Source: Schmidtea polychroa (Eukaryota). From it: a stretch of DNA of 64,000 nucleotides. The position numbers and the translations under genes were made by a program. The notes below the pieces were generated by a model. The model was not told where the DNA came from. It made no database searches and was given only the letters and a program-made list of their open reading frames with translations. Where the stretch lies: positions 47,058,001 through 47,122,000 of the forward strand of contig CM097888.1 in the NCBI GenBank assembly GCA_044892525.1. Direction: 5' to 3'. Within the stretch, counting starts at the first letter, position 1. The number at the start of each line of letters is the position of its first letter. This document shows, piece after piece, positions 1-62,467 of this stretch.

Positions 1-3000
1 GATGCAAGTGGATATGCAGCCGGAGCAATATTAGGACAACTCGACGAAGAAGGAAAAGAAAGAGTGATTGGATACTACAGTAGAACGTTTAAAAAGCACG
101 AGAAAAACTATTCCGTAACCGAGAGAGAAGCGTTAGCAATCATACAAGCAATTAAACACTTTCGATATTTACTATGGGGACACGAAATATGTATCACCAC
201 GGATCATCAACCATTAGTATGGCTTGGTCAACACAAAGAAGCTTCAAGTAGATTGATGCGATGGGCAATGCAGTTACAAGAATATTCACCGTTCATAAAA
301 TTCAAAGCGGGAAGAGCGAATGCCAATGCGGATTGTATGTCCAGATTTATCTTTCCAGATTTAGTAGATCACGAAATGCAACGAATATGTCTGATGGTAG
401 CAGAAGATTTAGATTTTTGCCAATTACGGAAAGACCAACAAGAGGATACAGAGTTGAAGCAAATCATTGAATATGTGAAAACAGGGAAAGCAGAGGTATA
501 TGAGAAAGATCAAAAATTGAAGGAGCATATGGATAAACATCGACATCGATATATTATCGAGAAAGATTGGTTATTGATAATGGATGGCGAGAAAAGACTG
601 ATGTGCATTCCCGAGAATAGACGTAAAGATCTACTAACACAATACCATGACGGAAGACTCGGAGGACATATGTCATCTAAAAAGACGTTGGCACGAATGA
701 AACAAAAATATTTTTGGCCTACATTGACCGAGGATGTAACGGAATGGGTGAAAAATTGCATAACTTGCGCAACCAGAAAAAACACGGGAACAAAATGGAA
801 GGCACCATTAAAGCCAATGCCAGTACCAGCAGAACCAATGACAATGATATCAATGGACGTAGTCGGTCCACTACCAGAATCAGATAGAGGAAATATATAT
901 ATATTGGTAATCACAGATTATTTGACAAAATTCCCCGAAGCATTCGCAATGGCAGATCAGAAAGCAAGAACAATCGCAAAAATATTAGTAGAGGAAATAT
1001 GTTGTCGATATGGAACGCCGAAACAAATACTGACGGATCAAGGAACGAATTTCATGAGCGAAATAATGAGCGAAGTCACCAACTACTTCAAGATCGCAAA
1101 ATTAAGAACATCACCGTACCATCCACAAACTAATGGTATGACAGAAAGATTCAATGGAACACTGATTCAAATGTTATCAAATTATGTCGATCGTCATCAA
1201 CGAGACTGGGATGAATATATAAAATTATGTCTAATGGCTTACAGAATGTCGATTCACGCGTCCACAAAGATGAGTCCGTTCAAGTTGATGTACGGCAGAG
1301 AATGCAATATGCCAATGGATTTAGAATATCAGCCACCGATATCACAATACATGGAAATAGACGATTATGTAACCAAGTTCAAGGAAAGAATGCAGGAAAT
1401 CTGGGAAACCGCAGGATTGAATATAAAATTTTATCAAGAAAGTTACAAAGAGTTACATGATAGAAAGAAAAACGTCAAACAGCATACGTTTCAAACAGGC
1501 GAATGGGTGATGATTGAAACACCAGAATTAATTCCAGGAACCACCAAAAAATTACAACGAAACGGTAAAGGGCCGTATGAGATTCTATTCGTCGGAGAAA
1601 CTAATGTAAGAGTACGATTAGTGAACAACCCTTTTACAAGACCAATATACGTAAATGTTGCACGATGTAAGCCAATTCCGAAAACCGCCACCAGTCAGCC
1701 GGAAGGACGTACACTAACGACAAGATCACAAACGTATAGAATAAACATGTTACAGCAAATAAACGAACCAACAGGTAATCGATTAGGGTTACAACCATCA
1801 GAAGCCGAGAAAATCATAAAGGAAGTAAAAGTTAAAATGCCCGGATGGGCAGAAGACAGATTAGATTTTGAGATATTGGGAGGTCTGCTAACAATGATCG
1901 AAAATTATGCAAACCGAGAAAGAACACACCCATTGCTCAGGGTAGTTAAAAGTCAATGGCCTATATTATTCACGATCACAGACCACTACGGAGACACACC
2001 CCTGCACAAGCTTTTAAAGGTGGGTAGTAACGAACAGATATTAGAAACAATTGAAGCATTTCGCGATTGTAACATTTCGACAGATCAAGAAAACAACCAA
2101 GGTTACACTCCACTAATGATAGCAGCCAATCGGGATAAAGCTAAAGATATTATCATCGCATTACTTGAAACTGGGTCAAGGATAACCACACAAGATCACA
2201 ACCAGAAAAATGCATTACATCATGCAATCGAAGGGAAAAGTACGGAAGCCTTCATAATCTTAGTAGATCTAATATCATACGAGGATAATAGAGAGATAGG
2301 AAACATGTATGACGGGCTATTAACTGCAATCAAAGAGAAATTAACAACAATTACTGGAATACTAATTGCATGGAGGAACCCGATAAAAAACGATTATATG
2401 GTAGATATAAACGAAACATTTACCAAAGGAGAAAATACCTTGATGAGAGAAGCGATGAGAGGACATCACCTATTCGAAATTCCAAATCAACTACTACAAC
2501 GAGGCATAAAATTCTCAAATCACAAAGACGAACAACTAATCAGAAAACGAATTACCAACTTCGAAAAAGCTATATCTCAATTTACCGATAAAGTACAAGT
2601 AAAATTTTGGGACACCGTGAGTGTTTTACATATGATGGAAACTATGAACAACATTCGAGAAAACTACCTAAGTATTATTCAAGTTCTAACGGCAGAGGAA
2701 CGCATTAACAGTTCGAACAAGAAAAAGATAAAAATGAAGAAAGTAAAAGCAAGAGAGTCTGAGGAACAAGTCGATCAACCAATAACCGATATAGCAACAA
2801 CAAGTAAACCAAAGATAATAAACTCCGACCAAGAGATAGTAGTACGTAAGGCTAAAGAAGTATTCTTTGAAGAAATGCAAGATCTATCCGATGAAGCGAT
2901 ACTAGCAAAAATAACCAAAACAGTACACACCTACGCAAGAGATCAGACCACAAATCTAGACATAGGAAAAATAAAAACATTTATACCACTAGCATTCACC

Positions 3001-4983
3001 TTACCAACAAAAGACTCAAGAACACCATTACAACAAGCCATTTTAGCAGCAAAAGAGAACAGAGCAATAACCATCATAAGAATCCTCAGAGACTTCGGAG
3101 AAGAATCTAATGCAAAAAACGAACAAGGGGAAACAGCAATGATGTATGCAGCCATAACAAATATACACCCGAAAACATTACATATACTACATCAATCAGG
3201 TTCGAGACTTGACGAAAGATCAAACGAAGGAAATTCTGCCATGGATTGGGCAACAATACAACCAAACTTGGAAATGATTAGATTCATTTGCAAAAATGCT
3301 ACAAGAACTGAGGTAGAAAATATCTGTAAAAACACGTCACAGTTCCAATGGAACACGATACGGATGAACTTAGAAGCCATGAAGTTGCTGCTAACATGGA
3401 GAATACCACAGAGCAATAAATATGCAATAAATATAAATGAGTTCTACGAAAACGGAGAAAATGCTATGGTTAAAAATACACTAACAAAAGGAGGAACTCC
3501 GAAAATCATAATGATCGTATTAAACAGAGAAGATCTCAAATTCACGCAGAATCTAAACGAACAAAAGCGAATCGGGAAACATCGTCGGATACAATTAAGA
3601 GAATTAGTGAAAGAATGGAATAGAAAGAGACATGTAGCAACAGGCAGAAAGGAGTTCGAACTCGAAGCAAAATTAGCAAGAAACAGAGTGCTAACGGCAT
3701 ACCGCAGATTGTTGAATGATATAAATGTCGAGGACGACATTTTAAACGATAGCGGGGGAGATAAAGACGATAAAGACGATAAAGACGACGATAATAATGA
3801 AAAAGGTCGAAACGGGAATAAAGAGAAAGAGAAATCAGAGGAGAATAATCAAGAAAATAACGACGCGAGTAGGAAAAAAGAGGAAAATAACCCGAGAAAC
3901 CGAATAAAGCAAGAAGAAAAGACGAATAGTGGAAAACAGAGGGTATGCCTACTTTTTACCAACAAAGAAATGGAGACAAATATGATGATAATGATACTCG
4001 TACTAACAATGGTGGAAATGATAACAGCCCAGGGAGGAATGAGAACGATAAAAGAAGTCAAAGAAACGGAAAATAAGGACAGCAAAGAGGAAGAACTAAA
4101 ACAAGAAAAGAAAAAACAAGTACAAGAGCAGCAATGGGATCTAAAAGAAGAATGGGATTTAAAAGAAAGGTGTATATTAGGAAGATGTATGTCTAGAGCT
4201 TATCAGAGACTAGTGTTAAAAAATGAAGATGCAGAACCAATAACGGAAGTAAGAATACAAGAAGCATACCGAAATCGAGAAGGAAAGAGAATAACGAAAG
4301 TCAAAGGGAAGGAGGTACACCTGGGAAAAGGAGGTGAGGTAGTGATAACGCAACTCCAGCCAAGAAAAGAACACAAAGTCTGCATCGCAAGATTAAGACC
4401 GGGTGAAGACTGTCTACAATATGTAATACAGCAACAACCTCCAAAAGAATACACAATATGCATCTGGAGAAAAGATACAGCGAGAGAATGTCGACGATAC
4501 CCTGGGAAAAGAGGGAAGAAAAGAAAAATCGATGATGAAAAAGATGAGCAAGGAAAACGCAAGAAAAACAGTGAGAAACATCAAGACAACTATGTATCCG
4601 AAGAGGAGATGGAGAAAATACAAAAAATGGCAAAGGAAGGTATGAACGAGGAAATAGCAAGAATACGAGGAATGATGAAAGGAAATGGCAAAGACGGTAA
4701 TCTAAAAAGCACAGAAGCAATATCAACAATAACGAGCAAGGAAAAAGCGGAAATTATAAGCATAAAACAGATGATGTGGATCAGCGGTATAATAATAACA
4801 GGGGCCTTTTTAATCATAACGGGGGGGACAATAAAAATAATCAAAGACAGACGACATCGCGGGGAATTAGAAATGACCAGAATAAGAAATTTTCAACATC
4901 GTGTAAAACGACCAAGTAATATCAAGCAGGAACAGTGGGTGGAGGCCTGGAATGCTCAGCGCCCTCCAAGCTCACGTATATAG
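1..4983 (+). CDS. pol: Pol polyprotein C-terminal part: RNase H - integrase - ankyrin modules - membrane-anchored tail (frame open from base 1)
   Basis: Frame 1 is open from 1 (DASGYAAGAILGQ...NYSVTEREALA...TDHQPL, RNase H). Integrase HHCC (YHDGRLGGH...CITC), D-D35-E (SMDVVGP, TDQGTNF, NGMTERFN) and GPY motif. Ankyrin motifs GDTPLH, GYTPLMIAA, KNALHHA, RTPLQQA, GETAMMYAA, GNSAMDWA. Hydrophobic segments at about 3982-4030 and 4771-4842. No stop until 4981. Confidence 0.95.
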   Translation, partial: DASGYAAGAILGQLDEEGKERVIGYYSRTFKKHEKNYSVTEREALAIIQAIKHFRYLLWGHEICITTDHQPLVWLGQHKEASSRLMRWAMQLQEYSPFIKFKAGRANANADCMSRFIFPDLVDHEMQRICLMVAEDLDFCQLRKDQQEDTELKQIIEYVKTGKAEVYEKDQKLKEHMDKHRHRYIIEKDWLLIMDGEKRLMCIPENRRKDLLTQYHDGRLGGHMSSKKTLARMKQKYFWPTLTEDVTEWVKNCITCATRKNTGTKWKAPLKPMPVPAEPMTMISMDVVGPLPESDRGNIYILVITDYLTKFPEAFAMADQKARTIAKILVEEICCRYGTPKQILTDQGTNFMSEIMSEVTNYFKIAKLRTSPYHPQTNGMTERFNGTLIQMLSNYVDRHQRDWDEYIKLCLMAYRMSIHASTKMSPFKLMYGRECNMPMDLEYQPPISQYMEIDDYVTKFKERMQEIWETAGLNIKFYQESYKELHDRKKNVKQHTFQTGEWVMIETPELIPGTTKKLQRNGKGPYEILFVGETNVRVRLVNNPFTRPIYVNVARCKPIPKTATSQPEGRTLTTRSQTYRINMLQQINEPTGNRLGLQPSEAEKIIKEVKVKMPGWAEDRLDFEILGGLLTMIENYANRERTHPLLRVVKSQWPILFTITDHYGDTPLHKLLKVGSNEQILETIEAFRDCNISTDQENNQGYTPLMIAANRDKAKDIIIALLETGSRITTQDHNQKNALHHAIEGKSTEAFIILVDLISYEDNREIGNMYDGLLTAIKEKLTTITGILIAWRNPIKNDYMVDINETFTKGENTLMREAMRGHHLFEIPNQLLQRGIKFSNHKDEQLIRKRITNFEKAISQFTDKVQVKFWDTVSVLHMMETMNNIRENYLSIIQVLTAEERINSSNKKKIKMKKVKARESEEQVDQPITDIATTSKPKIINSDQEIVVRKAKEVFFEEMQDLSDEAILAKITKTVHTYARDQTTNLDIGKIKTFIPLAFTLPTKDSRTPLQQAILAAKENRAITIIRILRDFGEESNAKNEQGETAMMYAAITNIHPKTLHILHQSGSRLDERSNEGNSAMDWATIQPNLEMIRFICKNATRTEVENICKNTSQFQWNTIRMNLEAMKLLLTWRIPQSNKYAININEFYENGENAMVKNTLTKGGTPKIIMIVLNREDLKFTQNLNEQKRIGKHRRIQLRELVKEWNRKRHVATGRKEFELEAKLARNRVLTAYRRLLNDINVEDDILNDSGGDKDDKDDKDDDNNEKGRNGNKEKEKSEENNQENNDASRKKEENNPRNRIKQEEKTNSGKQRVCLLFTNKEMETNMMIMILVLTMVEMITAQGGMRTIKEVKETENKDSKEEELKQEKKKQVQEQQWDLKEEWDLKERCILGRCMSRAYQRLVLKNEDAEPITEVRIQEAYRNREGKRITKVKGKEVHLGKGGEVVITQLQPRKEHKVCIARLRPGEDCLQYVIQQQPPKEYTICIWRKDTARECRRYPGKRGKKRKIDDEKDEQGKRKKNSEKHQDNYVSEEEMEKIQKMAKEGMNEEIARIRGMMKGNGKDGNLKSTEAISTITSKEKAEIISIKQMMWISGIIITGAFLIITGGTIKIIKDRRHRGELEMTRIRNFQHRVKRPSNIKQEQWVEAWNAQRPPSSRI

Positions 4984-5151
4984 AAAGGATTATGACTGTA
5001 TATAGATTGTAAAAAGTAAGTAGGAAATATTTATTTATATAACAATATTCTATATTTTTATATAAGCGCGGTATCAATAGTATATAATGATGGGGATAAT
5101 TAATATGAAAATAAAATTAGATAAGGATTGAAAAGTATATATAAATTAAGA

Positions 5152-5511
5152 ATGGAGCGAATAGGCGAGGAAGTAAACCACAGTACAACAACCGAGGAGA
5201 TGTGGAAACAACAATGTGCAATGTTAACTCAAGTGATTTCGAATTTACAGGAACAAGGACTCGCTGTACAAAGAAGCTTAGTCGAAAGTTTAAATAAAGG
5301 CTTCAATTATGTAAGAATAATCGAAGACCAACGAATGAAAATAGAACAAATGCAGCGAGAGATAGACCGAATATCACGATACAGCCAGGTGCAAGAAGAG
5401 GAGTTAATAAGAATCGCGGAAGAGATGGAGCGAGAGGAGATAGAAGACTGGTCAGAATGGTTAACCAGCAGGGAAGAGGGCGGACAAGAGGCCGACTCTT
5501 CCAGCCAATAA
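5152..5511 (+). CDS. Retroelement accessory ORF, about 119-aa coiled-coil protein of unknown function
   Basis: ATG at 5152 in an open frame with E/Q/R-rich heptad-like composition; same strand and base bias as neighbouring ORFs; AT-rich spacers on both sides. Confidence 0.7.
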   Translation: MERIGEEVNHSTTTEEMWKQQCAMLTQVISNLQEQGLAVQRSLVESLNKGFNYVRIIEDQRMKIEQMQREIDRISRYSQVQEEELIRIAEEMEREEIEDWSEWLTSREEGGQEADSSSQ

Positions 5512-5601
5512 ATATAACCTAAAATAGCAATGTAAATAAATGTAAATAAAAAACACGAAACTGTACCAGTAACGAATATATGTATATATATAATTATAGA
5601 A

Positions 5602-6990
5602 ATGGATAAGCGACAACGAGAAGAATTCAGAGAAATTGTTGAACAAATCAGAAAGTCCACCACAATTCGAATACACAACCATGTAACGTGTGGAATATGC
5701 AAGAGCTTATTAAGAGAACCTCACCAAACCAGATGTGGATGCAGAATGTGCAAAGAATGTATAGAGGAGATAATAAAGAAGGGACCACAATGGTGCCCAG
5801 TATGCAAAGAAACAATGATAACAAGTTTGGGAGATACAAACGAAGATAAAGCAGCTGTAAAAGATATGTTAAATGCAAACCTAGGATGTAAAAACACCCC
5901 ATGTAATTGGCGAGGAGTGATATGGGAAGTGAGGCAACATATGGAGCAATGTGAGTATAAAATCAGTCAATGCAAACGTTGCCAAGAAGAGATTAAAGTC
6001 AATGAAGAAGCAGAACATCAAAGTCGATGCGAAGAAAGACTGGAGAAATGCGAGTATTGCGGAGAAAACGACACCTGGAAGAAACTAATCAGTCAACATC
6101 ACAACATACAAGAGGAGAAAGTGTGCGCAGAATTCAGAGGAGAATGCCCCAACAAATGCGATAAACCCGGAGTAATAAAACTCGCTCAACATCTAAAAGA
6201 GTGTGAAAGAAAAAAGATAACGTGTGTGCTAGGAAAATGGGGATGTCAGAAACAATTACACCGAGGGGAATTACCCCAACATCTAGCAGAAAACGTATCA
6301 ACACACGCGGAAATATGGTCAACGGTATTACAGGAAAACGAAAGGAAAACCGAAAACTTAGAAAGAGAAATAGTCTCGCTAAAAGCGTTGGTAAAAGAAC
6401 TATTGGAAGAAAAGGAAGCATTTGAAGAGGCGAGAACAAGTACAAAGATACAGACAGATCTAGTAGAAACTAGCAACATTATGGTGAAAGAACTATATCA
6501 AAAAGTAAGCGAATTAAACCTCAACGAATTAATACCTACGGCTCCGTACATATGGAAAATAACGGGAGTAAAAGAGAAGATGCAGAGAGCGAGAAATGGA
6601 AAGGATACAACATTACTAAGTCCAGCATTCTACTCATGGAAAAACGGGTATAAAATGAAAATGAAAGCATACCCCAATGGGGATGGAAGTGCATACGGAA
6701 CGCATTTCTCAGTATTCTTCTTGATGTGCAAAGGGCCATACGACGAGTTAATAGAATGGCCATTCAAAGCAAAAATAGACCTCGCAATGATGAACTATCA
6801 AAGTATACACGAACAGAGTTTCCATACAGCGGGAAACCTCGTATGTTACCAAAGGCCCTTGGAAGAAGAAGGACCAGCAACCGGAGCACCAAATTTCATC
6901 CTACAGCGGAAAGTAGAAGACATGACGAGAAACGACACTATATACATAAAAATAGCGGTGAGGCGAGACGGGAAGAGTAGGACTGAGTAG
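5602..6990 (+). CDS. TRAF: Full-length intronless TRAF-family protein (RING, TRAF zinc fingers, coiled coil, TRAF-C/MATH), 462 aa
   Basis: RING CGIC...P..TRCGCRMCKEC...CPVC; repeated C-x-C/H TRAF fingers; coiled coil ENERKTENLEREIVSLKALV; MATH hallmarks YIWKI, SPAFYS..GYKM..KAYPNGDG...GTHFSVFF..KGPYDELIEWPF. Paralog (TRAF2/3/5-like) cannot be resolved by eye. Confidence 0.95.
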   Translation: MDKRQREEFREIVEQIRKSTTIRIHNHVTCGICKSLLREPHQTRCGCRMCKECIEEIIKKGPQWCPVCKETMITSLGDTNEDKAAVKDMLNANLGCKNTPCNWRGVIWEVRQHMEQCEYKISQCKRCQEEIKVNEEAEHQSRCEERLEKCEYCGENDTWKKLISQHHNIQEEKVCAEFRGECPNKCDKPGVIKLAQHLKECERKKITCVLGKWGCQKQLHRGELPQHLAENVSTHAEIWSTVLQENERKTENLEREIVSLKALVKELLEEKEAFEEARTSTKIQTDLVETSNIMVKELYQKVSELNLNELIPTAPYIWKITGVKEKMQRARNGKDTTLLSPAFYSWKNGYKMKMKAYPNGDGSAYGTHFSVFFLMCKGPYDELIEWPFKAKIDLAMMNYQSIHEQSFHTAGNLVCYQRPLEEEGPATGAPNFILQRKVEDMTRNDTIYIKIAVRRDGKSRTE

Positions 6991-7209
6991 AGAGACGAAT
7001 AATTTTGTATATACTAATTGTAAATATCGGCGTATATATCCAGTAAAATATTATATAGTAGTGTAGAAAATTCCCCCCAAATCTACCAAAGGTAAACTTA
7101 AGCGGAAAACTCCTAAAACAACTCCTATAACGAATTATAAAAATAAATAAATAATAAACCAGATATAAGCGTACAACGTTGAGTTAATGATATCGTTATT
7201 TAGACAAAG

Positions 7210-8031
7210 ATGACACAAAAAGGAACTGAAGCCCCAAACCACGAAACCAAAGTCAATAAAATCCATAAGGGAAAATGGGTCAAAGTAATGTTACAATTGA
7301 CGAACCAGACCCACAACCATCTCGAAGAGGCCAGGGAATACGAGAATAACAAATATCAGTGGTTAGTAAACAATTTAAGAGCCGAAGCAGAAGCATGCAA
7401 AAGAGCCTCTAAGTGGGCATCATTGGAAAACACTCGCCAAGAAGCGCACAGCCACTATTTAAAACAGTTAGTGCAGGAAGCACGGAAACGATTGACGGAC
7501 GAAAACACAAAACGAGAAGCAGAAAAACAAAAGGAAGGAAGGAAAATGAATCACCTATTGGCAGAAGCCCGAAACTGGAAGCGGCAGAACAAAGAGATGA
7601 AAAAAGAAATGAAAGAATTGCCTATGAGATTAGAATACGAAAGCGAACAAGGCAAATGGGAGGAAAATCTGGTCATAAGAGAAGAACTGAAACGGCTCAG
7701 AAAGATTGCGGCCCGAAGCCAAACATGGCAGACCAAAGCCATGGAATTTGAAAGACATCTAGCCATGAAAATCTCCATAAGGGAGCACGAGAATGCCGCA
7801 ATGGAAGAACTGATACTTCAACAGTCAGGACGACTCGTGGAACTGGTGAATAAGGTCGCAGAACTAGAACGAGATGTCAACGGATACCAAGGAGCTCTGG
7901 AGCAGAGAAATATGGTACTGGCGGGGAAAAACAAAAAGTTAGAAAACGAAAGGAAAATGTATAACGAAAATCTTAAAAATCTGGAGATAGAGATCAAGAA
8001 ATGGGAAAACGGCGAAAAGCGGAAGAGCTAG
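7210..8031 (+). CDS. Retroelement accessory ORF, 273-aa coiled-coil protein (possibly continues into 8001-8246 across a frameshift)
   Basis: Long open frame with E/K/R/L heptad composition; preceded by ttttag|acaaagATG. Confidence 0.75.
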   Translation: MTQKGTEAPNHETKVNKIHKGKWVKVMLQLTNQTHNHLEEAREYENNKYQWLVNNLRAEAEACKRASKWASLENTRQEAHSHYLKQLVQEARKRLTDENTKREAEKQKEGRKMNHLLAEARNWKRQNKEMKKEMKELPMRLEYESEQGKWEENLVIREELKRLRKIAARSQTWQTKAMEFERHLAMKISIREHENAAMEELILQQSGRLVELVNKVAELERDVNGYQGALEQRNMVLAGKNKKLENERKMYNENLKNLEIEIKKWENGEKRKS

Positions 8032-8246
8032 AAAAACAGATAGAGGTAAGAGACGATGAAACCAGGTATCTAACATACCTGTTGGACGAGGAACTTAACG
8101 TGTCAAGAGCACTAAGAGACGAAGTGCAAGAACTTAGAGCGCAGATTCCCCGGTACTACATCCCATTTGATCCCATCGCACTCCAATTACAAACGTCAGT
8201 AGAAAGCGATGAGGGATATGTAGGCCAGGAAGAGACCTTTGTATAA
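8001..8246 (+). CDS. Short overlapping ORF, likely the frameshifted C-terminus of the 7210 ORF
   Basis: Overlaps the previous ORF by 31 nt in another frame and continues the coiled-coil pattern (AEELEKQIEVRDDETRYL); no spacer or acceptor in front of it. Confidence 0.5.
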   Translation: MGKRRKAEELEKQIEVRDDETRYLTYLLDEELNVSRALRDEVQELRAQIPRYYIPFDPIALQLQTSVESDEGYVGQEETFV

Positions 8247-8421
8247 AGATAAAAGGAAAGATAAAAAATATAAAAATCGGGACCTGTATCCCAACCAAAA
8301 AAAATTAATGGTACAGTAAAAGTATGAAAGGGACTGTAACCCTGATTATAAAATAACATATAAATGTATAAGTATAAGCCGCACTGTAGCGCAATTATTA
8401 ATTATGTATATATTATAGAAA

Positions 8422-9123
8422 ATGAACACTGAAAACGGACAACCCAGCATAACATCTATAATTGAGTTAGAAGAGGGAGAAATTGAAGTTGATGAAGTGG
8501 AGAGGAAGAAAACTATCAAGGAAGAATTACAAGAAGAGAGACAGGAAAACGAAAGATTAGTTGAAAGATGGAGAGATAATCGAAAAATGATTAAAGTATT
8601 GAAAAGAGAATATATCTTGTTAGAAGGAGTAAAGAAAGAAGTAGAGGAGGAAAACGAATGGCTTCACGAGCAAAGAAAGCGAGGGAGAAATTGGGAAAAG
8701 ATCGCGGAAGAATTATGGCAGGAGAGGGCCAGTCGAAAGGCCGACGAAGTGATTAGTGACTATTGGAAAACCGAGGCACGGAAACACCAGGAAAGCCTGA
8801 AAGAGTTACAACTCCAACTACACCAAAAACAGAAAGAATGTGAGATAATGAGACGAATGAACAACAAATACCAGGAAATAGACAACGAAGAGGACGGGGA
8901 AAGGGAAAATGATTTTCTACAGATAATGAACCATAGAAACCTCGAAAGAGCAACACAAGAAATAAAAGCACTAAAAGGAAAAATAATAACCCTAAGGCAA
9001 CAGTTAGACGAAAGAGACAAACAATTAAAAGTACTACCCGAATTGAGAAAACGAGTAATAAAAGCAGAAACGAGAGTGATGAGAACATCCGAGAAAACCC
9101 GTAAAAAGAAAACCCGGCAATAA
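8422..9123 (+). CDS. Retroelement accessory ORF, 233-aa coiled-coil protein with basic C-terminus
   Basis: Open frame, highly charged heptad composition, ends KTRKKKTRQ; preceded by ttatag|aaaATG. Confidence 0.75.
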   Translation: MNTENGQPSITSIIELEEGEIEVDEVERKKTIKEELQEERQENERLVERWRDNRKMIKVLKREYILLEGVKKEVEEENEWLHEQRKRGRNWEKIAEELWQERASRKADEVISDYWKTEARKHQESLKELQLQLHQKQKECEIMRRMNNKYQEIDNEEDGERENDFLQIMNHRNLERATQEIKALKGKIITLRQQLDERDKQLKVLPELRKRVIKAETRVMRTSEKTRKKKTRQ

Positions 9124-9178
9124 TTAAAGATGAATGATCAATGTAAATAATTGTAAATAAAAATTTTCGTATAGTAGT

Positions 9179-9805
9179 ATGTGGTTCGGAGCAACCTTGG
9201 TGACAATAATGATGATAGCGATAAACGGGATACCCATGTGGCAACCAATCCCAACACTCTGGGAGAATCCCGAGAAACAGCAAAACTCGTTAACCAAACT
9301 AAAAAGCGCAAGAAAGCTCTGCAACAACATCCCGAAACAATGCTGGAACAAAGCCGTCTGGCAAAAACTTCAAATGCAACTCCACCTACAAACCCAAAAA
9401 ATCGAACAGCTCGAAACTCTCTTACAAGAACAAACCACCCAACAATCCTTGAAGGAAATCATCATGAAGAAGGAAGTAAAAGAAAGCCAAGTCTTACTCT
9501 ATACTACCATCAGTGAAACCCTTATCATCTGCGCACTAGTCATCTGGAAAGCGTATGATATTCATCGAACATGGAGAAGAAACCAGTCACTATCCGAAAA
9601 ACACGAAAGAAAGAACCCACGATCGAAAAATAAATATAAACGAGCAGTACATTTTCAACAACCAAACCCACCCGACCAAATGCAACAAAATCTATCTCCT
9701 GACCAAATGCCTGTTACAATCCAGCTCCCCACGATAACAACTTCAACCAGCCATCCGACCCAGAATTCAACTAACCAAGACATTCCGAACCTTGAGATCA
9801 TGTGA
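9179..9805 (+). CDS. Retroelement accessory ORF, 208-aa predicted membrane protein (N-terminal signal/TM, coiled coil, second TM, P/Q/T-rich tail)
   Basis: Hydrophobic MWFGATLVTIMMIAING; heptad LQMQLHLQTQKIEQLETLLQE; hydrophobic VLLYTTISETLIICALVIW followed by basic residues. Confidence 0.7.
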   Translation: MWFGATLVTIMMIAINGIPMWQPIPTLWENPEKQQNSLTKLKSARKLCNNIPKQCWNKAVWQKLQMQLHLQTQKIEQLETLLQEQTTQQSLKEIIMKKEVKESQVLLYTTISETLIICALVIWKAYDIHRTWRRNQSLSEKHERKNPRSKNKYKRAVHFQQPNPPDQMQQNLSPDQMPVTIQLPTITTSTSHPTQNSTNQDIPNLEIM

Positions 9806-10530
9806 CATCGACCATTCATAAACTTTGTGTGTATAAATCCGGTCACCTAAAGTGGCCACTGCTTGCTTATATTTGTCCTTTTATCTGTTTAATTAAAGTA
9901 TTATTTAGTTATTTTAATTTTATGTTTGTGTGAATGTTGACCGTGAAATTAGTTGTTATGCCGAAAAAAGGTATGAGTTAAACGTATGATATTATATGAA
10001 TTGCGGGGCGCAATTTTAACGGGCCCCGGAGTGATTTGTTGGGCTAAAATGCGGAGTGGAGAAAACTGGAGCGAATAGAAAATAAACCTCGAAAGATAAA
10101 TGAAATAAGATAAAAATATCAAGTACCATAAAAATCTCACTAGTAAATAGGAAGGAACAATAAAATAACAATAAAAGAATAAGAATAAGTAAACAAACTA
10201 AATAAAATCCAATAAACCCCTTAAGATTTAGAAATAAAACGGGTTAAGGTACACAGCGGATAAAATAGAAATAGAATAAGTAAAAAAGTAAAAACAAATA
10301 AACGAGGAATTTAAGAAAATAAATAAAAATAAAACCATCTTAAGTCTAATTAAAACAAAAAATGATATTGCAATAAAATAACAATAAGTCCACAGGAAAA
10401 ATAGGAGAAAAATAAGAAAAATAAATAAAATAATAATAAGAGATAAGTCAGGTCATTAAAAATTTAAAATACGATGATAAAAACATAAAAATAATAATAA
10501 ATAGTAAAAATACAAGCAGGTAGCGTCCTG

Positions 10531-10580
10531 ATTGGACGAAAAATACTATATATGTAACGTGAAAAATTAGACGACAACCA
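10531..10580 (+). promoter_or_regulatory. LTR core promoter: CCAAT box (ATTGG), TATA box, predicted initiator
   Basis: ATTGG 10531-10535, TATATAT 10547-10553, Inr-like CCACTTT about 33 nt downstream; same layout in the solo LTR. Confidence 0.65.
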
Positions 10581-12930
10581 CTTTTAATTTTTCACGATTA
10601 CAGGTAAAATTTTAGAAAAGAACTTAGAACCACTTTTAATTTTTCACGATTACAGAGCATAGACTTCAGATATTTCACCGAATTCAGGACTAGAATCGCA
10701 AACGCCAATTCCAGAGATTTTCAGAATTTAACTTTAATTTAGTCGAGACCATTTTAAATTCGATTTCGTTCCAGTTTTTGAAACTACCGGTAGGCCGATT
10801 GATTTATATGTATTAGTAATTTATTAATGATGAAAAACAAAACTCATTTCGTAAAATAAATTTATTGAAATACAAATGGCCTTTTCTTCATGGTGCCGGC
10901 GACTGTACCATCTGAGAACTCCCAGTATGATGTGGATGAGTTGGAAATGTACCACGGTAGAGAACACAACAGTGGGAAGGTTGACCTTCATAAGAAATCC
11001 CGAAGATGCTGAAAATGAGAATGTGATATTTGCAGAGAAGGATATTTATCATACGAGAAATCCACCAAGGGTATGATGAGGCTGCGGTTGTGTGGAATGA
11101 ATAGCATCATACTTGGAGTCCAAATGATAGGGTCGCCGGGTGAGCTTTATTGATTCATTTATTTTCATTGATTTATTTATTTTTTGATTCATTTACTGCT
11201 ATTCGAGTCATTCATTCCTTTTATTATTCATAAATTGTATATTAAATGTTGATTTTGTGAAAGACGAGTCAAACGGTCCCTCACGACGATGCAAGAACGG
11301 CGGCAGAGATGATTGCCTTCTTGGGTGGGTCATGAGGGGTGAGGAGACTCCGCAGGTGGAATACTGTTGGAAGTGGAATTTCTCACATCGAGCGCGATCT
11401 GATAGAGGATCTTTCGTTTTCTTTTATGAAGTCACGCTGAAGTTTCAGAATAAATAATGCAAATTTCCAAAGTCGGAGACAATTTTTCGGATTGAGATCA
11501 GTAGTTCGTTGTTGTTAGGAAAATTTGCTTTTCCATCGAATATTGATAGATGTCTGAGTAGGGATGGGCGATGAATTGTTAGAGTTTTCACTGGAAGATC
11601 TGCTAAGCACTTAAAAATTGAACCCCGAGAGGTACATTGCAGGGACATTAGCGAGTAAACCCATTCATTGACTAATTTAGACTTTAGCTTGACATTGAAT
11701 ATCTGATAAAGTTTGGTTTGACGTTGACAGCGGCTCGTCTAAAATGGGAAAGTAAACAAATTTTTTGATAAGGAAATAAATCACTTGCCGTGAGTCCGAG
11801 TGAAGATATCAATAGCGATAGGAGAATCATTAGTTGCCCATGGCCAGATAAATTTCCGACGGGGAAAATCGGCTGATAATTTGATAAAGTCATCGAACGA
11901 GTTGATTGAGAAGGCGGCAGTCGATCGAGTGTATTGAGTGGTCTTATCGTGAGTCGACCTAATATCGAAAATCCAGAATATAGAGTAATTTTTATCTACT
12001 GAATCCGCAAGTCACCCACACAATCGAATTTCTTGAGTTTTGGACACACCAACTGAGTACCCGTCTCAACTAGAGCATCTCTCTACAACTCTACCTCTAT
12101 TAATCGCTCGCCCACATGTACACATGCATCACACTCAGATTAGGTCACAGTGCACATGTGGATATCATCATTACCTAATCATAGGGAGAGAGTCGTACAC
12201 TTGAAACTGCTGGTAGACCACTGGATTGCGTCAGAGAACATGGCGATGCGACGAGAAATTTTTTTTTTGTCAGTGTGCAAGTCGCTAGTTAAATGCACCA
12301 ACATGCATCGTGACGAACCCGTCGATAGTTGATGGCATAGATAGACAATCAAATGAACACATAACTGCGCCCAATTTAAGCGTCACTATGACGATGTTTA
12401 TGGCGTTAAATTGAAATAACTAAGTTATGAGCCATGATAAAAATTTAAGCGAGAGTATTATGATTTTCTTACAAACCCGAGGGGCCTACATACAAGACGG
12501 GGTGTCCCGGTAATTGCCGACTTTCCGTTCATCATACAGCACGCGTAGAATTTGATGACGTAGCAGCAAAATGAGTAAAATATAATGGTTAAAATGTAAC
12601 AACGATAATTAAGATAATAGCATTCATAGTAACGAATTAACAGTCATGCAGTAGTTAAAAATAGCCAAACCCATAAAGTAAACCTAAAAGCTAGCATAAT
12701 GAAGTGTCTTCATGAATCCCGTTTTCTTCTCATAAAGTAGTAATGATTTCATGGGTTAGTTTAGATGTTTGAGGTTGCATGAAGGTGAATGTTTGTCGAC
12801 GGGGTAGATTGGTAGGCCACTCTTTGATAACTTGGTCGGGGAGATTCTTAAACTTCATTTTTCCGAAAACATGAATAATGCCCCAGTGAATTTTTTTTAA
12901 TCTAACAATAAAAATTTCTTAACAATTCAG

Positions 12931-13695
12931 ATGAATACCTCAACCAGTTCCGGGAAAACCCTCAGACCTTGCTTTTCCTGTGCTGATAAAAATGCCGATA
13001 TCGCACAGCTCCACTTGTACATAGGGGAATTGAAGAAGAGAATTGACCTCTATGAGGGAACGTGGTTCTCCCCACCACAAATGAAGGAGGAGAAGAGCAA
13101 GATTCTGCGTCTGGAGCACTGCCGTGACAGTCTCCTGGAAGAAAGCAGGTGCCAGAGGTTAACCATAAAGGCCCAATCAGAGGCACTGCACAAGGTGTAT
13201 TCCGAATCAGAACTAGCGAAGCGAGTTCGCGAGTACCCGATACAAGATGGGACTAACGTGTTCCCAATGCACCACAAATTAGCTGAAACCTCATCAATAT
13301 CCAGTTGTAAAGGGCATGGCCCACAAATGCCGCCAATTCCCGCCCCAGTCCTTTCGGGCGATCGACCTATGGCTGGCGGTTCATCGGACCCTATCTTGGC
13401 TCCAGTACTCGTGCCACACCTCCTTCAGTCCCCAGCAGAAGCTACACTTCCCCATCGAAAGCGTAAGCGGCTGACGCGTTCTGAAAAAAATCAGAAGCGT
13501 AGAAATGCCATGGCCGCGCTCGAAGCATCGTTGTCCGCAGCCCAATCGACTATCAAGGAAATTACAGTTACCCATTCCATTCCTACAAAGGAAGTATTCC
13601 GGGTAGTTCCGGCCGACAGTATCAAATTCCTCGAGGATCGCCGGTTGCCCGTTGATATCGACGAGATGCTCGCAGAAGGAGAAGCATTCTCGTAG
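12931..13695 (+). CDS. LTR-encoded 254-aa protein (CxxC, coiled coil, Pro-rich linker, basic NLS-like patch, acidic C-terminus)
   Basis: Intact in both LTR copies; 95 of the first 103 aa identical while most differences are synonymous; ttcag directly before the ATG and a CTAAC branch-like motif at 12902. Confidence 0.85.
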   Translation: MNTSTSSGKTLRPCFSCADKNADIAQLHLYIGELKKRIDLYEGTWFSPPQMKEEKSKILRLEHCRDSLLEESRCQRLTIKAQSEALHKVYSESELAKRVREYPIQDGTNVFPMHHKLAETSSISSCKGHGPQMPPIPAPVLSGDRPMAGGSSDPILAPVLVPHLLQSPAEATLPHRKRKRLTRSEKNQKRRNAMAALEASLSAAQSTIKEITVTHSIPTKEVFRVVPADSIKFLEDRRLPVDIDEMLAEGEAFS

Positions 13696-14575
13696 CAAAT
13701 TCTCTCTCGGGTCTCGATTCCCTGCTATTACGAACGAACTTGAAGAAGCGACGTTATCTCGTGACTAATCTTTAATGTTTTGCATTTACTTAAACAATGC
13801 TGAATGTAATTTGATGTTCCGTTCTAATATAACTGTTCGATTTTCTTTGATTGTGTTAATTGTATGTATGATTTGCTACGGTTGAATTGCATGAGAGAAG
13901 GATCACGAAAATATAGTAGAAACTCAAATGTCGTACCTTTGGACCAGGGTCGGACCGAATGATGCGTAAAGAATGGGTAAGACCTTCTAAGGCACCGTAG
14001 AACCCGAACCGAGAAAGGGTTAGGAGTAGTCCTAAGGCAGGGGCTCACCTGCTAACTCTTTCCAACCCGTGTGAGCAGCACCAACGTGGAAACACCACCA
14101 CGGGCTCATACGTGGGAATATGCGAATGATCATTTGGAGTGTGTGAGGGAATGGTCTGAGCAGAATGATGATACCTGATGTGTATGATAATCATACCTAT
14201 ATATTTTCTTTTCCCCCCACATACGCCAACAAATAATTTGTTGCATAATATATATAAAACAATTTTTTATTATTTAATTTTTATATATTCTTAGTAATAT
14301 CTCTATGAAAATTTTTTCTTAATAATAATTTTAATTAATAAATTTTCTATTTCAGTTTTATTAATCATTAACTTTTCCTAGACGTTTTCCTGGCACTTTG
14401 GTAAAAATATTAGTTAAAATTATTCGATGAAAATACTGATTTTCAATATTAATGAAATTTGAAAGATCAAAATTTTAAAAAATAACTGAAATAAATAGAA
14501 AAACATCTACAAAAATTCAAACTTTATTATCGGTTTAATGTTTTGTTTAACACAATCAATATAATATCTCGATCA

Positions 14576-15175
14576 ATGTTGAAAATAGGATTATTCAAAG
14601 TTTTAAGTAAAATTTGCTCCAATCAATCAAGTAATTAGTGATTTTAAACTTTCTAAATTGATTTTTTTAATTATGAAGCAAAAATAACAATTTTGAGATG
14701 TATGAGCAGTGATCACCATCATTATAACTATCTTGAGTTCGAACCTGAAACAGTACGTAAAATAACATTACGAGTGAGTGATGCAGTGGCTCCTAAACCA
14801 ATTGGTAAAAACCATAAATTTTACACCTATCTCCGTGGTTTTGGAGCTTTATTTGTTTCACTTATTTTCTTTGGTACCACAGGAATGATTTGGATCGAAA
14901 ACTATGGTTTATGTTACGAAATTTTCCATGATCAGAAATATGAAAATTCTGAAAAGGGCCTCGAATTTTATGAGGTTGGTAAAAATTATTTTCATAAGGA
15001 AAGTGATGAACGGGCAGCGGAAATTATGGCTGAAAGAAGAAAAAATTATAGGGAAACTAAAATTATTCCAGGCGTTCAATTGGGAAAAAGTTTAGAAGGT
15101 GATTGGCCAATTCAAGAGTACGAAAACACTGATGAAGCAATATGTTGGATAGATCGCAAATTGGCGGGAAAATAG
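14576..15175 (+). CDS. Host two-exon gene (14576-14630, 14679-15175), 183 aa, probable mitochondrial single-pass membrane protein; family unassigned
   Basis: A 48-nt GT-AG intron joins the frames: MLKIGLFKVLSKICSNQSTKITILRCMSSDHHH (basic, acid-free presequence with an R-C-M-S-S cleavage-like motif); one TM segment GFGALFVSLIFFGTTGMIWI. Confidence 0.7.
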
Positions 15176-16915: not shown

Positions 16916-18740
16916 TGACTCTGAATTAATTGTTTAACTTCATTATGAACAGAAATATATGGTATTTATGTAATTCTTAAAATTTAATTAATGTAATGTA
17001 AGTTTAATATAAAAACAATTTTTTTATATATGATTTATTTTTTCGATAGATGGGAAGAGTAGAAGGGGGATATAAATTATTTTGAGCCACCACTGATTGT
17101 TACCTTAATCAAACTTGGTGAAATATTGCAATTCTCCACAAAAAAATAATAACATCCGCCTTTACTTTATATTTTTTCTATCCTCAATAACACTGCAAAA
17201 TCTAAAAAGGTTTTGTCGAAATATCGTGTACGTTAAATATTGTTTTAATTTATACATTAATATTACACTTTTCAAATCTTAAGTTCTTTATAATTGCTAC
17301 CTGAGACTATTGTAAATTATTTTAAGTTTGTTTCTCTTTATATGCTGCACTTATATGTTGTATTAATGAATTTAATAAGCCCTTCACAGTTTTCACCTAC
17401 CGTTTTCTCGAAGTTGAGAAACTTTTTAAAAAATAATAAGTGCCCTACTTGTTACTATCCAAGGTTAAGCTCTATGTTGTCATAGTAATGTATTTTGTTC
17501 GTCTGTTTGTGCATAATTACTTGCTGTTTCGAAGTGATTTTCTACTAAGATGACTAGTGGGAAGTCATTGGGTGGCACAGTGACATCAATGTGAGTAAAG
17601 CGGAAGAGAAAGTGTGAGTTTTTGTAAGTTGTAGTGAAGCTCCTTATGAAGTGCGAGTCAAGTTTCGGACAGTACCGATTGGATGATCTGCAGTTTTTAC
17701 TTTTGTTTTTATAAATAACTTGTTACTTTTCTCTTTTTTGTAATTTTTTTTGCTAATACAAACCTTGTTTCTTTTTCAAATTGATTAACAATTGCTTCCT
17801 TTCATTTTCCTATATTGAAAATCGAATCAAAATATTTCAGAAGAGGCCTTTTTCAAAATTTCTCTTTGGCCAATTAATTTTCTTTTATATATTTCTCCAT
17901 TTTACCTAATCTAATAATTGTAATAAATCAATGACACAAAACCATGGACACGAATCATGCTTTAATTAATGAGTATTGTTCTCAACCGATTCATCATTGC
18001 ATCCAAATTCAATATTAGCTCGATAACTTAGCTGTAAATTTTATCTATTTTTCTGACGTTAAAATTGACAAATTGATTTTTTAATTAATTTATTTTATCA
18101 ATGACATCAATAAATCAATATTTATTTAAATATTAATATTAGATATCGATAATATTAGATATTCGAGCATGAAATTATGGTTGAAACAATTAAAAATCCC
18201 GATTTATCTCGAAGTAAAGAGTAACAGAACTACAAATTATCGCAGTCAAGTAGGGAAAAATTGAAAAACTCCAACTGAACTTTAAAAGCTGCAATTATTG
18301 GCAAATATATTGTAATGTATGAGAAATATTCCAGCTGAACCAGGGATATTTTGGGGCTGACAAATAGAGAAAAAAATGATAAAAGAAATTAAAAAAAGAA
18401 TGCTAAAATATGTCTACATTCGGAAAGACAACAAGAATTGCCATGGACATAAAATATTTCCAATTCTTTTTCCTTATCTTTCGATAGCTTCAAACTTGAT
18501 TGGGAGGAATTTTACGAAATTGATTATTTAATTATTTATATTTGTTTTAATTTTTGAACTGTATTAATTAATAAATTTTTGAAATTCGATTTACAAAAAC
18601 AATATTATACATTAATTTATTGATATCAATGATAATAATTAGATATTTAACCTTTAGCACGATAAATAAGATTTGGGTATCCACGGAAATAGAAATAAAT
18701 AAATAACTGAAAAGTGAAATATATATTTATTTATTTATTA

Positions 18741-18878
18741 AAAAGAGAGTTTGAAGACTATAAATCAGTAATATATCGATGTTTGTTGATAAATTGAAAA
18801 CAAGGCAGTTCCGAAAATTCGTGAGTATCAACAAACATCGATATATTACTGATTTATAGCCTTCAAGATCTCTTTTTA
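18741..18878. repeat. Inverted repeat (hairpin A)
   Basis: Perfect 34-bp arms 18758-18791 and 18826-18859 with a 34-nt loop, extending outward with mismatches. Confidence 0.9.
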
Positions 18879-19037
18879 TAAAAATTCTATGGAAAAAATA
18901 ATCAGTGATGAAACTGGAAGAAAAAAGATTTTACTGTTTTCAAGCTATTTTTAATAAATAATAATAATAATATCAATAATAAAAACAATAATGATATCAA
19001 TAATAATATCAATGATAACAATAATAATAACACAATT

Positions 19038-19178
19038 AAATGATAATTTAAGCCTTTTGCTGCAAATAATGTATTTAATGAAAATATTTTCGACTATAAG
19101 ATAGTCCTTATCAATCTTATAGTCTAAAATATTTTCATTAAATACATTATTTGCAGCAAAAGGCTTAAATTATCATTT
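19038..19178. repeat. Palindromic repeat (hairpin B), related to 23512-23622
   Basis: 65-nt arms 19038-19102 and 19114-19178 with one mismatch and an 11-nt loop. Confidence 0.9.
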
Positions 19179-20925
19179 TATTGTTTTAAATAATAAATGC
19201 TGCTACCAAGAAATCATCATAATAATAATAACAATAATAATATCAATTAATAATATCAATAATAATAACAATAATAATATCAATAATATCAATAATAATA
19301 TCAATAATAACAATAATAATATCAATTAATAATATCAATAATAATAACAATAATAACAATAATAGAATCAGTAATAACAATAATAATATCAATAATAATA
19401 TCAATTATTAATACCTAAAATATTTCCAAATCTTTTTCCTTATCTCTCGATGACTTTAAATTTTGTTGTGAGGAAAATTACGAAATTGATTATTTATTTT
19501 TGAATTGCACTATTTAATAGATTTTTGAAATTCGATTTATTTATTAATAATTTCGATTTACAATAACAATATTATTATCCATGGAAATACAAATAAATAA
19601 ATAACTGAAAAATGAAATATTTATATATTAATATTAACTTATTTAACATTAATTTACAAACGAAACTATTACACAATATTGACAATAGGTAAAGGTAAAA
19701 TGGTGATTACAAAGTCTAATACATCATTTAACGGTAAAATAACTAAATAAAACTGTTATTCTTGCATAAAATGTAAAAGAAAAGTTAAAATTGAAAATAG
19801 TGTCAGATTCCGAATAAAATTTATCGATCAAAAAAATTTTTGGCACTTTTCCAATTTGATATTGGAAATCGATTGTGCAATTCAAATCGAGAGTCATCTA
19901 AATAAAATACGAAATATTCAACCGGTAAAATACAATTGAAAAATTTTATAATTTAGGTTTACAATTGGTCTGACAAGTGACAAAATTCGCTCGCTTCTAA
20001 AGCTGGAACATAATTGTCAATGAAAATGGAAATTCGGAAAAATAAATGCAACATCAAAATAAAGAGAAATGGTAGAATTCAGTTAAATGATATGATGAAA
20101 CTGGAATAAAAAGAACTAGATGCAAGTGTACCATTGAAATGCCAGGTCTAAAATATTAATGACAGCTTTCAATTTGAAAAAGGTAGTTAAACCGTCTTCG
20201 GAACGCGATAAGTAAGAGGAAACAAATCTAANNNNNNNNNNNNNNNNNNNNNNNNNNNNNNNNNNNNNNNNNNNNNNNNNNNNNNNNNNNNNNNNNNNNN
20301 NNNNNNNNNNNNNNNNNNNNNNNNNNNNNNNNNNNNNNNNNNNNNNNNNNNNNNNNNNNNNNNNNNNNNNNNNNNNNNNNNNNNAATATATAGTAGAAAG
20401 GTCGCTTGTTTGTACAAAAATAAAATTTAAAGATTTCAAAATATAATAAAGTTAGAATATTCAAATTTAACCGATATTTAGGAAAAATGCCAATAGTTCT
20501 CCAAAATATTTTCAGACTTATACTTGGATTTTATTTAACTTTTAAGTTAGTGCATGTATTGAAAATGCCATTATTCATTTAAATCCTAAGCTCAATAATA
20601 TCCTGAATATATTTCTTATACTCTTGGTAATAATTATATCAATTGCATCTGTTCAAAAAATATCATACAAGAAATATGAGAGCTGACTTATTAGATCTTA
20701 TTTCCTGAATGGTTGTTGAAATTGGGAAAAGGAAAAATAAAAAACAAAATATTTCAACTAGTTGATAAAAAAAACTTGATCAAATTAAGAAACATTAATT
20801 AAAAGATTATATGATTTCCAAATTTAGTTAACATTATCAGGGTTAATTTTTGCAAAAAATATTCGGTTAAATTGGATAATATATGCATCAATCTATGGGA
20901 AAGAATTAATTTTCAGATAAAATTG

Positions 20926-20962
<37 letters not shown>

Positions 20963-21168
20963 TAAAAAATTAATGGTGAAGGAAAAATTATTTAATTCCG
21001 ATAATATTTATATGTAAAAGTATTTGGGGAAAAATGCCAAAGGAATAGATAAAAATCGACTAAGTGATGAAAAACACTAACTAAGTCCAAGAAGTATTGA
21101 ATAGAAATCTGCTACCTCAAGATAAGAAAGATTGACTATTCAGATAAATATTGGCAGACTCGATGATA

Positions 21169-55352: not shown

Positions 55353-56150
55353 TCAGCCACTCGATTCTTCTTTCATTCGTTTCTTGTTGTGAATGTAGTT
55401 CGACTCGATGAGGCGATAGAAATCTGACGATTTTATATGGGCTATTGTATTGCTTACCATCCTTGTGCCTGTTCTGTGGCTCTTTACATACGAGTACCTC
55501 TTAATCCACTTTGAAAACACGAGGTCCCTCTTTGTCTTATCCATAGCTCTCATAGTGTCTGCGACTTTACTCGAGTTAAATCTCGCGTTTTCGGTTCTTT
55601 CGCTTCTTGATATCTCGGCTTGTTTCAGGTTAGAGTGTATGTTAACACTTCGTCCATAAATTATCTCAAATGGTGATAAACCTGTAGCACTTTTTCGACT
55701 GCTATTTATAGTGAACTCTATTCTTGGTAGAAGTTCATGCCAGTTTCTCTCTTCAAATCGACCTACCAATGCTGCTGTAATAAGATCTCTTATCGTTCGT
55801 ATGGCTCGTTCGGCTAAACCATTTGATTGGTGCTGGTAAGGTGAGCTGAATTACTGTTTGATTCCAAGTTTCTGTACTTCTGTTTTAGGAAATTCCCTTC
55901 GAAATTTCGGCCTCTATCTGTTAAAATGCTCTTCGGTTTTCCAAATCGATAGATCCAACTATTAAGTATTGTTTTGAAAATTGTCCCTTAGTCTTGCTTT
56001 GTGATTTCAGTTAAAGATATCAGTTTGCTAAAACGGTACACCATTACTACCATATATTTTTATGGCGTTTATTTTCATGTAAGCCACATCTATAACAATC
56101 TGTTCTAGGAATTTAGAGCTATATCTTAGGAATAAATGTTTTCTTGGTTC
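55353..56150 (-). pseudogene. Integrase core of the small Gypsy element (frameshifted), downstream of the solo LTR
   Basis: FLEQIVIDVAYM, LTDRGRNFE, SSPYQHQSNGLAERAIRTIRD, LPRIEFTINS...TGLSPFEIIYG. Confidence 0.88.
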
Positions 56151-56672
56151 TGTTGGCGTATGTGGGGAAGAGAAAGATATGCACGTGTAACCTTCACACA
56201 TACAAGGCGTCATCGTTCCACTCAGGCACTCCCCCTACATACCCCAGATGATCAAATGCATATTCCCACGTATGAGCCCGTGGTGATGTTCCACGTTGGT
56301 GCTGCTCACACGGGTCGGAAAAGGTTAGCAGGTGAGCCCCTGCCTTAAGACTACTCCTAACCCTGTCTCGGTTCGGGTTCCATGGCGCCGTAGAAGGTCT
56401 TACCCGTTCCTCTGCACATCATTCGGTCCTTCCCTGGTCCAAGGGGACGACCCTGTATTGCTACCTAAATCCGATATCGTCCTATTGTTCACTTTTAATC
56501 CCATATCATGCATACCAGAAACAATCACCGAGAGACAATTAAAATTATATTACACCCACAACAATAACTACATTTATAATAAGAAAAGTGACTGTCACAA
56601 AATAAATGTTCAATATTCACAAATACTCAGGTCCGCTTTCGAATCTTGCAGAATCAAGGCAGTGGAAATCGG

Positions 56673-60851: not shown

Positions 60852-60855
60852 TGTA

Positions 60856-62420: not shown

Positions 62421-62467
62421 TAGCGACTTTGTCGATTTCGAAATGGCGTTGTTGTTTTGATTTTCGG

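Follow-up and report, generated by a model that had tools for sequence, protein, structure and literature searches.

In a 64-kb stretch of Schmidtea polychroa DNA (the window, to which all coordinates refer), a full-length intronless TRAF gene encoding a RING, five zinc fingers, a coiled coil, and a MATH domain lies downstream of the pol frame of a Gypsy-type retrotransposon (Table 1). At the local base composition, 462 stop-free codons would occur by chance with a probability of ∼2e-15. The C-terminal part of pol contains RNase H, integrase (H2C2, D-D35-E, and GPY, with the D-D35-E spacing intact), two ankyrin clusters, and a hydrophobic C-terminal segment. Among the accessory ORFs, ORF4 has a codon use less pol-like than that of the TRAF gene and appears broken near 8010-8030, by mutation or assembly error, another frame with element-type codon use being open to the end of the feature; this element copy is therefore not pristine. 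ORF6 resembles a small type I membrane protein. One PxQxS is present in its tail and in 18% of shuffled tails, and the tail was dropped as a TRAF bait because the motif is not above chance; a complex prediction for ORF6 and TRAF, run without use of an alignment, was uninformative, its score of 0.01 being far below the mark (0.34). No BIR or BCL2 domain was detected among the element ORFs scanned, the 5′ half of the element lying beyond the window, and an Rfam search of 4900-14400 gave no match.

The flanks of the LTR downstream of ORF6 differ and carry no target duplication, with AT-rich host-like DNA beyond. Such flanks would be seen at the right-hand LTR of a larger element; the solo copy has a 4-bp duplication, and an independent LTR insertion at 10037 was ruled out on this comparison. 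Since the LTR follows the accessory ORFs without a target duplication of its own, the TRAF gene is located between pol and the 3′ LTR. The 5′ LTR is also outside the window, and the internal part measures at least 10 kb from RNase H onward. The sequence immediately before the LTR (10001-10036) is a G/C-rich stretch that is not purine-only, and a clear polypurine tract is absent. RNase H before integrase, D-D35-E, GPY/F, and TG...CA LTR ends are all features of Ty3/Gypsy elements; the short target duplication was found at the solo LTR only. The two LTR copies are 37-62% identical in the middle and about 70-89% at both ends (10037-10600 and 13925-14231). The ORF encoded within the LTR is 73% identical between the copies (89% in the first 115 aa) with saturated silent sites (pS 0.85, pN 0.16), and by this comparison it is evidently under purifying selection. 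It has a Cys pair near its start, a basic stretch, and an AG directly before the ATG in both copies; no Pfam family was assigned to it, and Atlas matches stayed below 0.9.

Other features of the window were recorded as well. The solo LTR splits a small decayed Gypsy element (55353-62450, minus strand; gag zinc knuckle and integrase), having inserted into the integrase. A Tc5/DDE_1 (Tigger/pogo-type) transposase occupies two ORFs (27212-28873, plus strand); near 28011-28245 it is split by a short repeat with an inverted copy at 48066-48305. A Tc1-like transposase fragment lies at 63363-63872 (HTH match below cut-off). The region 18400-23700 consists of hairpin-rich AAT-microsatellite repeats with inverted arms of 58-75 bp, possibly a foldback or MITE family. 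Just outside the LTR, a 172-codon open frame (14657-15175, plus strand) shows a hydrophobic stretch and host-type codon use, with no Pfam match. A host gene at 38500-46000 (minus strand) encodes a coiled coil and a C2H2-like finger; we take it to be SCAPER-like by its motifs, an identity for which six exon frames gave no Pfam confirmation.

Table 1. Coordinates of the retrotransposon, its TRAF gene, and the related LTR in the window.
Feature	Position	Strand	Description
Gypsy polyprotein, 3′ part	1-4983	+	One open frame, 1660 codons; pol stop at 4983
Accessory ORF2	5152-5511	+	119 aa; element-type codon use; no confident family
Spacer before TRAF	5512-5601	+	Paired TGTAAATA / AATAAA (5531-5550); third TGTATATA at 5581
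TRAF ORF	5602-6990	+	462 aa, ATG to TAG; no introns or internal stops
RING finger	5689-5805	+	aa 30-68; eight Cys ligands, Cys47 at the usual His position
Five TRAF-type zinc fingers	5887-6306	+	aa 96-235; four CCHC, last CCHH; by ligand spacing
Coiled coil (TRAF-N)	6295-6510	+	aa 232-303; continuous helix, pLDDT >84
MATH / TRAF-C	6547-6960	+	aa 316-453; Pfam E 2.6e-25
Candidate TRAF 3′ UTR and spacer	6991-7209	+	TGTATATA at 7006, TGTAAATA at 7019, AATAAA cluster at 7142-7158
Accessory ORF4	7210-8246	+	Long helical-type ORF to 8031
Accessory ORF5	8422-9123	+	233 aa; charged; no confident family
Accessory ORF6	9179-9805	+	208 aa; hydrophobic leader, one transmembrane segment (105-123), P/Q/T-rich tail
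3′ LTR	10037-14231	+	4195 bp; TGTTGG...CCAACA ends
LTR-encoded ORF	12931-13695	+	254 aa; counterpart at 57434-56673 (-) in solo LTR
Diverged solo LTR, same group	56151-60345	-	4-bp target duplication GAAC, which defines the LTR ends

The sequence-only reading had described a complete RING-ZnF-CC-MATH ORF without introns inside an LTR element, which Pfam, structure searches, and the position of the gene bore out. The Pfam C3HC4 RING model matched aa 30-68 at 23.2 bits against a cut-off of 21; Pfam zf-TRAF was not reported, and the five fingers were assigned by aligning the spacing of their ligands with that of homologues. Five fingers are typical of TRAF2, TRAF3, and TRAF5, the same count as here. 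The AlphaFold model (42-row alignment; mean pLDDT 93, pTM 0.52) contained the RING, the fingers, a 72-residue helix (232-303), and a beta-sandwich (316-455). Foldseek returned TRAF2, TRAF3, and TRAF1 as top matches to the model, the TRAF-C fold at E about 1e-17. Searches of solved structures matched the C-terminal half to TRAF3 and TRAF2 (E 4e-28) and the RING-finger half to TRAF6 (E 1e-15) and TRAF5 (E 1e-13). With a TRAF-C (MATH) domain, a TRAF-N coiled coil ahead of it, and an N-terminal RING and fingers, the predicted protein has the domain features that define the TRAF family.

In the motif CGCRMC (aa 45-50), the fourth RING ligand is Cys47 rather than the canonical His, and this had been taken as a special variant. 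The same replacement was found in 20 of 171 TRAF matches (His in 74, RING unparsed in 77) and in seven of the best nine of these 171, the RING of the other two not being parsable. It occurs in all three named Dendrocoelum lacteum TRAFs (TRAF-2, -4, and -5) and in two echinoderm TRAF3-like proteins (crinoid and starfish), which ruled out an innovation of the element. The all-Cys RING, common in planarian TRAFs, was thus inherited from the host family.

Sequence signs of E3 activity are mixed. The spacing from the RING helix to the last ligand pair is as in TRAF6, an Ile, an Ile, and a Pro align with TRAF6 without insertion at positions that we presume to face the E2, and a Lys directly follows the last ligand. 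In the alignment, the Phe of TRAF6 that presumably serves the RING dimer is replaced by Ala, as it is in host-type planarian TRAFs and TRAF2-like proteins. In the MATH domain, the groove loop reads NLVC where TRAF2 has the serine triad TSSS, Thr replaces the Ser of the ASG motif, and the Arg of RxY has become Lys with the Tyr kept. We take the serine triad and RxY to be the residues that read PxQxT motifs in TRAF2/3/5-type receptor adaptors, and this set is not preserved in the element TRAF. Host-type planarian TRAFs also keep just part of the serine triad; the groove loop and neighbouring motifs of the element TRAF and its nearest relative, P0024, depart from both TRAF2 and these host-type proteins. 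By this comparison it is the receptor-binding groove, and not the RING, that sets the element TRAF apart from host TRAFs.

Neither a transcript nor a close relative of the element TRAF turned up, and its exact sequence was absent. Among 1.84 billion representative proteins, the closest full-length relative was P0024 at 37% identity; a word-based search gave just 21 distant TRAFs (23-29% identity), and a profile search added one relative, P0193, which is broken. The named nearest relatives are from triclads. We built a 53-row tree from all Cys-type matches, 8 unparsed near matches, and the 24 best His-type matches, leaving out proteins longer than 740 aa and the 21 word-search TRAFs. In this tree the element TRAF formed a clade with P0024, P0031, P0036, and P0126 (100/99); the named Dendrocoelum and Dugesia TRAFs fell outside it, in the host-type TRAF2A/TRAF4 and TRAF2/5 groups. 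In a 22-row mixture-model tree, 15 planarian-type rows were split from 7 others at 100/100, and the element TRAF grouped with P0024 (99/98), a join that is flagged for long-branch effects as a meeting of long, compositionally odd branches. The share of E, K, R, T, and I residues (EKRTI) was 0.45-0.51 in P0024, P0031, P0036, and P0126, 0.40 in the element TRAF, and 0.26-0.37 in 11 other TRAFs.

P0031, P0036, P0126, and P0193 are truncated or gapped protein models with 47-87% mutual identity, as decaying repeat copies would be. The sequence-only reading had held that mostly disrupted TRAF copies elsewhere would count against it; four of the five other clade members are indeed broken, but since decay is normal for any transposon gene, this is not an argument against selection in the lineage that replicates. 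In another protein, P0034, a TRAF2A-like sequence of host type is preceded by an integrase tail of GPY type (E 0.004; 42% over 38 aa), and the join reflects either a second capture or a gene-model artefact; the integrase-like start of P0034 was removed for both trees. The suggestion that transposition inflates the apparent number of host TRAFs gained partial support from the separate clade with several broken models and from the P0034 join. For the integrase region, P0175 was the best of four long-polyprotein matches (46% over RNase H-integrase). P0175 (cluster of 20) and P0176 are Gypsy polyproteins of 4,000 aa in which gag and protease are separated by a viral fusion glycoprotein, in frame in P0175; P0175 has a further protease-like domain after integrase, and P0176 has a PHAX RNA-binding domain.

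The four-fold sites of the TRAF gene are strongly biased (A 0.60, T 0.07), as are those of the pol RNase H-integrase region (A 0.58, T 0.09), compared with 0.33 and 0.33 in a host exon. Silent sites of the TRAF gene did not differ from those of the whole pol (p = 0.35) and differed from those of the host exon (p = 8e-9), the host reference being one exon of 467 codons. The A-rich, element-type codon bias noted earlier was confirmed by these counts. All 27 zinc ligands checked are kept in both the element TRAF and P0024 at 36-37% identity. On the grounds that its silent sites are pol-like and that 27 of 27 ligands survive 64% divergence from the nearest relative, we concluded that the TRAF gene is, by sequence, an old and selected gene of the element, in agreement with the long residence proposed before. 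No second TRAF copy was found within the window. The intron-rich character of host genes was also seen, in one gene (∼38.5-46 kb, minus strand), where 8 of 8 donor and 6 of 7 acceptor motifs were located by eye.

Next to the accessory ORFs, the spacers carry candidate expression signals. All nine TGTANATA motifs in 1-10036 fall within spacers, which total 968 nt (2000 shuffles gave a mean of 0.83 and a maximum of 5), and six of them form pairs shortly 3′ of the ORF2, TRAF, and ORF5 stops; we assume that they are either Pumilio elements or the UGUA portion of poly(A) signals. In the spacer before the TRAF gene, an AT tract is followed by an AG whose last base is 5599, two bases ahead of the ATG. 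By a rule framed post hoc, after inspection of the sequence, an AT tract with an AG at most 6 bases before the ATG was found at 6 of 6 accessory starts vs. 11 of 331 other ATGs and 72 of 938 spacer positions. An independent acceptor score, trained on only six host acceptors (the seventh, whose motif was not located, was dropped), ranked the start-adjacent AG first for three of the six ORFs, namely TRAF (best of 3), ORF5, and ORF6, and low for ORF2 (5 of 11), ORF4 (3 of 13), and the LTR ORF (122 of 278). A donor-like GGGTAAGA (13977 in the 3′ LTR) is kept toward the end of each LTR, within a 3′ block that is conserved in general; in folding, the conserved LTR end surpasses shuffled sequence only slightly (z -1.98). 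The spacers between accessory ORFs are 55-219 bp long, which is below the 300-bp spacer threshold for operon candidates of flatworms, and spliced-leader trans-splicing occurs in Schmidtea (PMC12582326). The signals would fit cis- as well as trans-splicing.

The best overall explanation, to which we assign a probability of roughly 0.55, is that the element has selected a TRAF2-type scaffold that would favour survival of the cell transcribing it. Its parts differ in strength. Very probably, the accessory gene goes back to an ancient capture of a processed planarian TRAF copy and has been maintained by selection on the replicating element. The protein is probably translated from its own mRNA, which would be spliced at the AG at 5598-5599 to a 5′ LTR leader or a spliced leader, would end at the AATAAA cluster, and would hold the paired UGUA(N)AUA elements in its 3′ UTR. 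The last part is more tentative, at somewhat less than even odds: the coiled coil would mediate oligomerization and the oligomer would recruit IAP or other ubiquitin ligases as a pro-survival scaffold, keeping element-transcribing cells alive. The coiled coil of TRAF2 binds cIAP. Such a scaffold would be largely uncoupled from the normal receptor motifs, because the binding groove is changed. A wider scheme is doubtful: the 3′-half accessory cassette might be cut into single-gene mRNAs, by LTR-donor splicing as in complex retroviruses or by flatworm spliced-leader trans-splicing as in operons, with Pumilio-type gating in stem cells. In that scheme the element TRAF lineage and element or host IAPs could rebuild a TRAF-cIAP module for survival, in which ORF6 might mimic a receptor, and part of the planarian TRAF expansion could be cargo of more than one capture, as P0034, with its integrase tail joined to a host-type TRAF2A-like protein, would suggest.

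The altered groove can also be read in other ways. The element TRAF might act as a decoy, joining host TRAF oligomers through its coiled coil and dampening immune or anti-retroelement signalling; the groove loop shared in its departure with P0024 and the Ala at the TRAF6 dimer position would fit. We consider this unlikely, however: a pure decoy would not require every RING and finger ligand, yet each one checked is kept, and the Ala is not a loss by the element since host-type planarian TRAFs have it too. Less likely still is a stand-alone E3 ligase whose RING recruits an E2 while the re-shaped MATH domain selects a host restriction factor or an element protein. It would account for the TRAF6-like RING spacing, the aligned Ile/Ile/Pro, the Lys after the last ligand, and the changed groove; against it, the dimer Phe of TRAF6 is absent, and RINGs of the TRAF2/3/5 type are weak ligases on their own.

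That the gene is neutral cargo, or a host retrogene merely adjoining the element, seems very improbable and is already largely refuted by the sequence. The broken clade members and a 5′ LTR outside the window might be cited for it, but silent sites indistinguishable from those of pol and unlike the host exon, a frame and ligands intact after deep divergence, spacer motifs shared with neighbouring ORFs, and the LTR without target duplication argue against it. An equally small probability was given to a pro-death or release factor. A viral TRAF with such an effect exists, the iridovirus protein ORF111L, which binds TRADD and activates caspase 8 (PMC3352826), and Burro-like elements may be proviruses (PMC6431247); on the other hand, an inherited element benefits when its host cell survives, and other Burro cargo (BIR/RING, BCL2-like) is of an anti-death kind (PMC6431247, PMC13465017). 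We favour the survival scaffold over these alternatives.

Planarian TRAFs are reported to be greatly expanded, for a reason that is unresolved (PMC6109357, PMC8807557), and the available text of a planarian TRAF study (PMC7586133) does not contain "transpos," "retro," or "Burro." A TRAF clade borne by elements would offer a partial and testable explanation of this expansion, and host and transposon genes may be confounded in TRAF counts and RNAi. If the survival reading holds, the Burro1 result, which concerns one IAP, would gain a second node in that survival pathway. The spacer signals would make accessory-gene expression in giant retroelements directly testable with existing long-read data.

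Judged by its description and not by a sequence match to Burro1-4, the element looks like a planarian Burro giant Gypsy retrotransposon. Burro elements carry MATH_TRAF_C, ankyrin, BIR, RING, and BCL2-like motifs and an env in frame before the protease (PMC6431247); ankyrin repeats and MATH/TRAF cargo, which belong to that description, were found here by Pfam. The resemblance to Burro / GYPSM1 extends to the Gypsy order of RNase H and integrase, the accessory ORFs, the very long LTR, and the AT-rich host, and P0175, the nearest long integrase relative, shares the env between gag and protease; the Burro-like layout may be wider than planarians. In Burro, however, MATH_TRAF_C is located in ORF1 (Schmidtea) or an upstream accessory ORF (Dugesia tigrina) (PMC6431247), whereas the present element carries its full RING-ZnF-CC-MATH gene 3′ of pol.

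Interference of Burro cargo with apoptosis and ubiquitination has already been suggested (PMC6431247), and the Burro1 RING and BIR protein (B-IAP) protects stem cells from caspase-mediated death (PMC13465017, known second-hand). By analogy, a role in host-cell survival, as the sequence-only reading had proposed, is plausible. Both are captured RING-bearing regulators of ubiquitin or cell death in a planarian giant LTR element, but B-IAP is an IAP (BIR and RING) of demonstrated function (PMC13465017), whereas the role of the element TRAF is predicted from sequence. In an earlier study, Burro1 RNAi did not improve the smedwi-2 phenotype (PMC8532177), which concerned a different question and gave no sign of function. 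Knockdown of host TRAF-2A/B raises cleaved caspase-3, and host TRAFs are needed for cell survival (PMC7586133). ISKNV ORF111L is likewise a TRAF homologue on a parasitic genetic element, but it belongs to a fish DNA virus and is pro-apoptotic (PMC3352826).

Planarian host TRAFs (Smed-TRAF-2A/B, Dugesia japonica TRAF2-like A, and Dendrocoelum lacteum TRAF-2, -4, and -5) share domain order and zinc ligands with the element TRAF, and the three Dendrocoelum proteins also share its Cys-for-His RING, the Dugesia entry being without a RING. Identity to them is ∼26-32%, and the element TRAF differs in its separate clade, A-rich composition, and diverged groove. Compared with vertebrate TRAF2/3/5 and TRAF6, it has the TRAF-C fold and the RING spacing of TRAF6, but differs in the Cys for the His ligand, the replaced serine triad, and the Lys for the Arg of RxY. 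In the literature searched we found no description of a full-length TRAF downstream of pol, nor of the separate TRAF clade and spacer signals; full-length TRAF ORFs may already be documented in the primary Burro papers, their supplements, or Repbase. TRAF/MATH cargo and the survival idea are already known for elements of the Burro group (PMC6431247); the full-length TRAF 3′ of pol, the paired UGUA(N)AUA motifs after accessory stops, the acceptor-like AGs before starts, and the selected LTR ORF are new.
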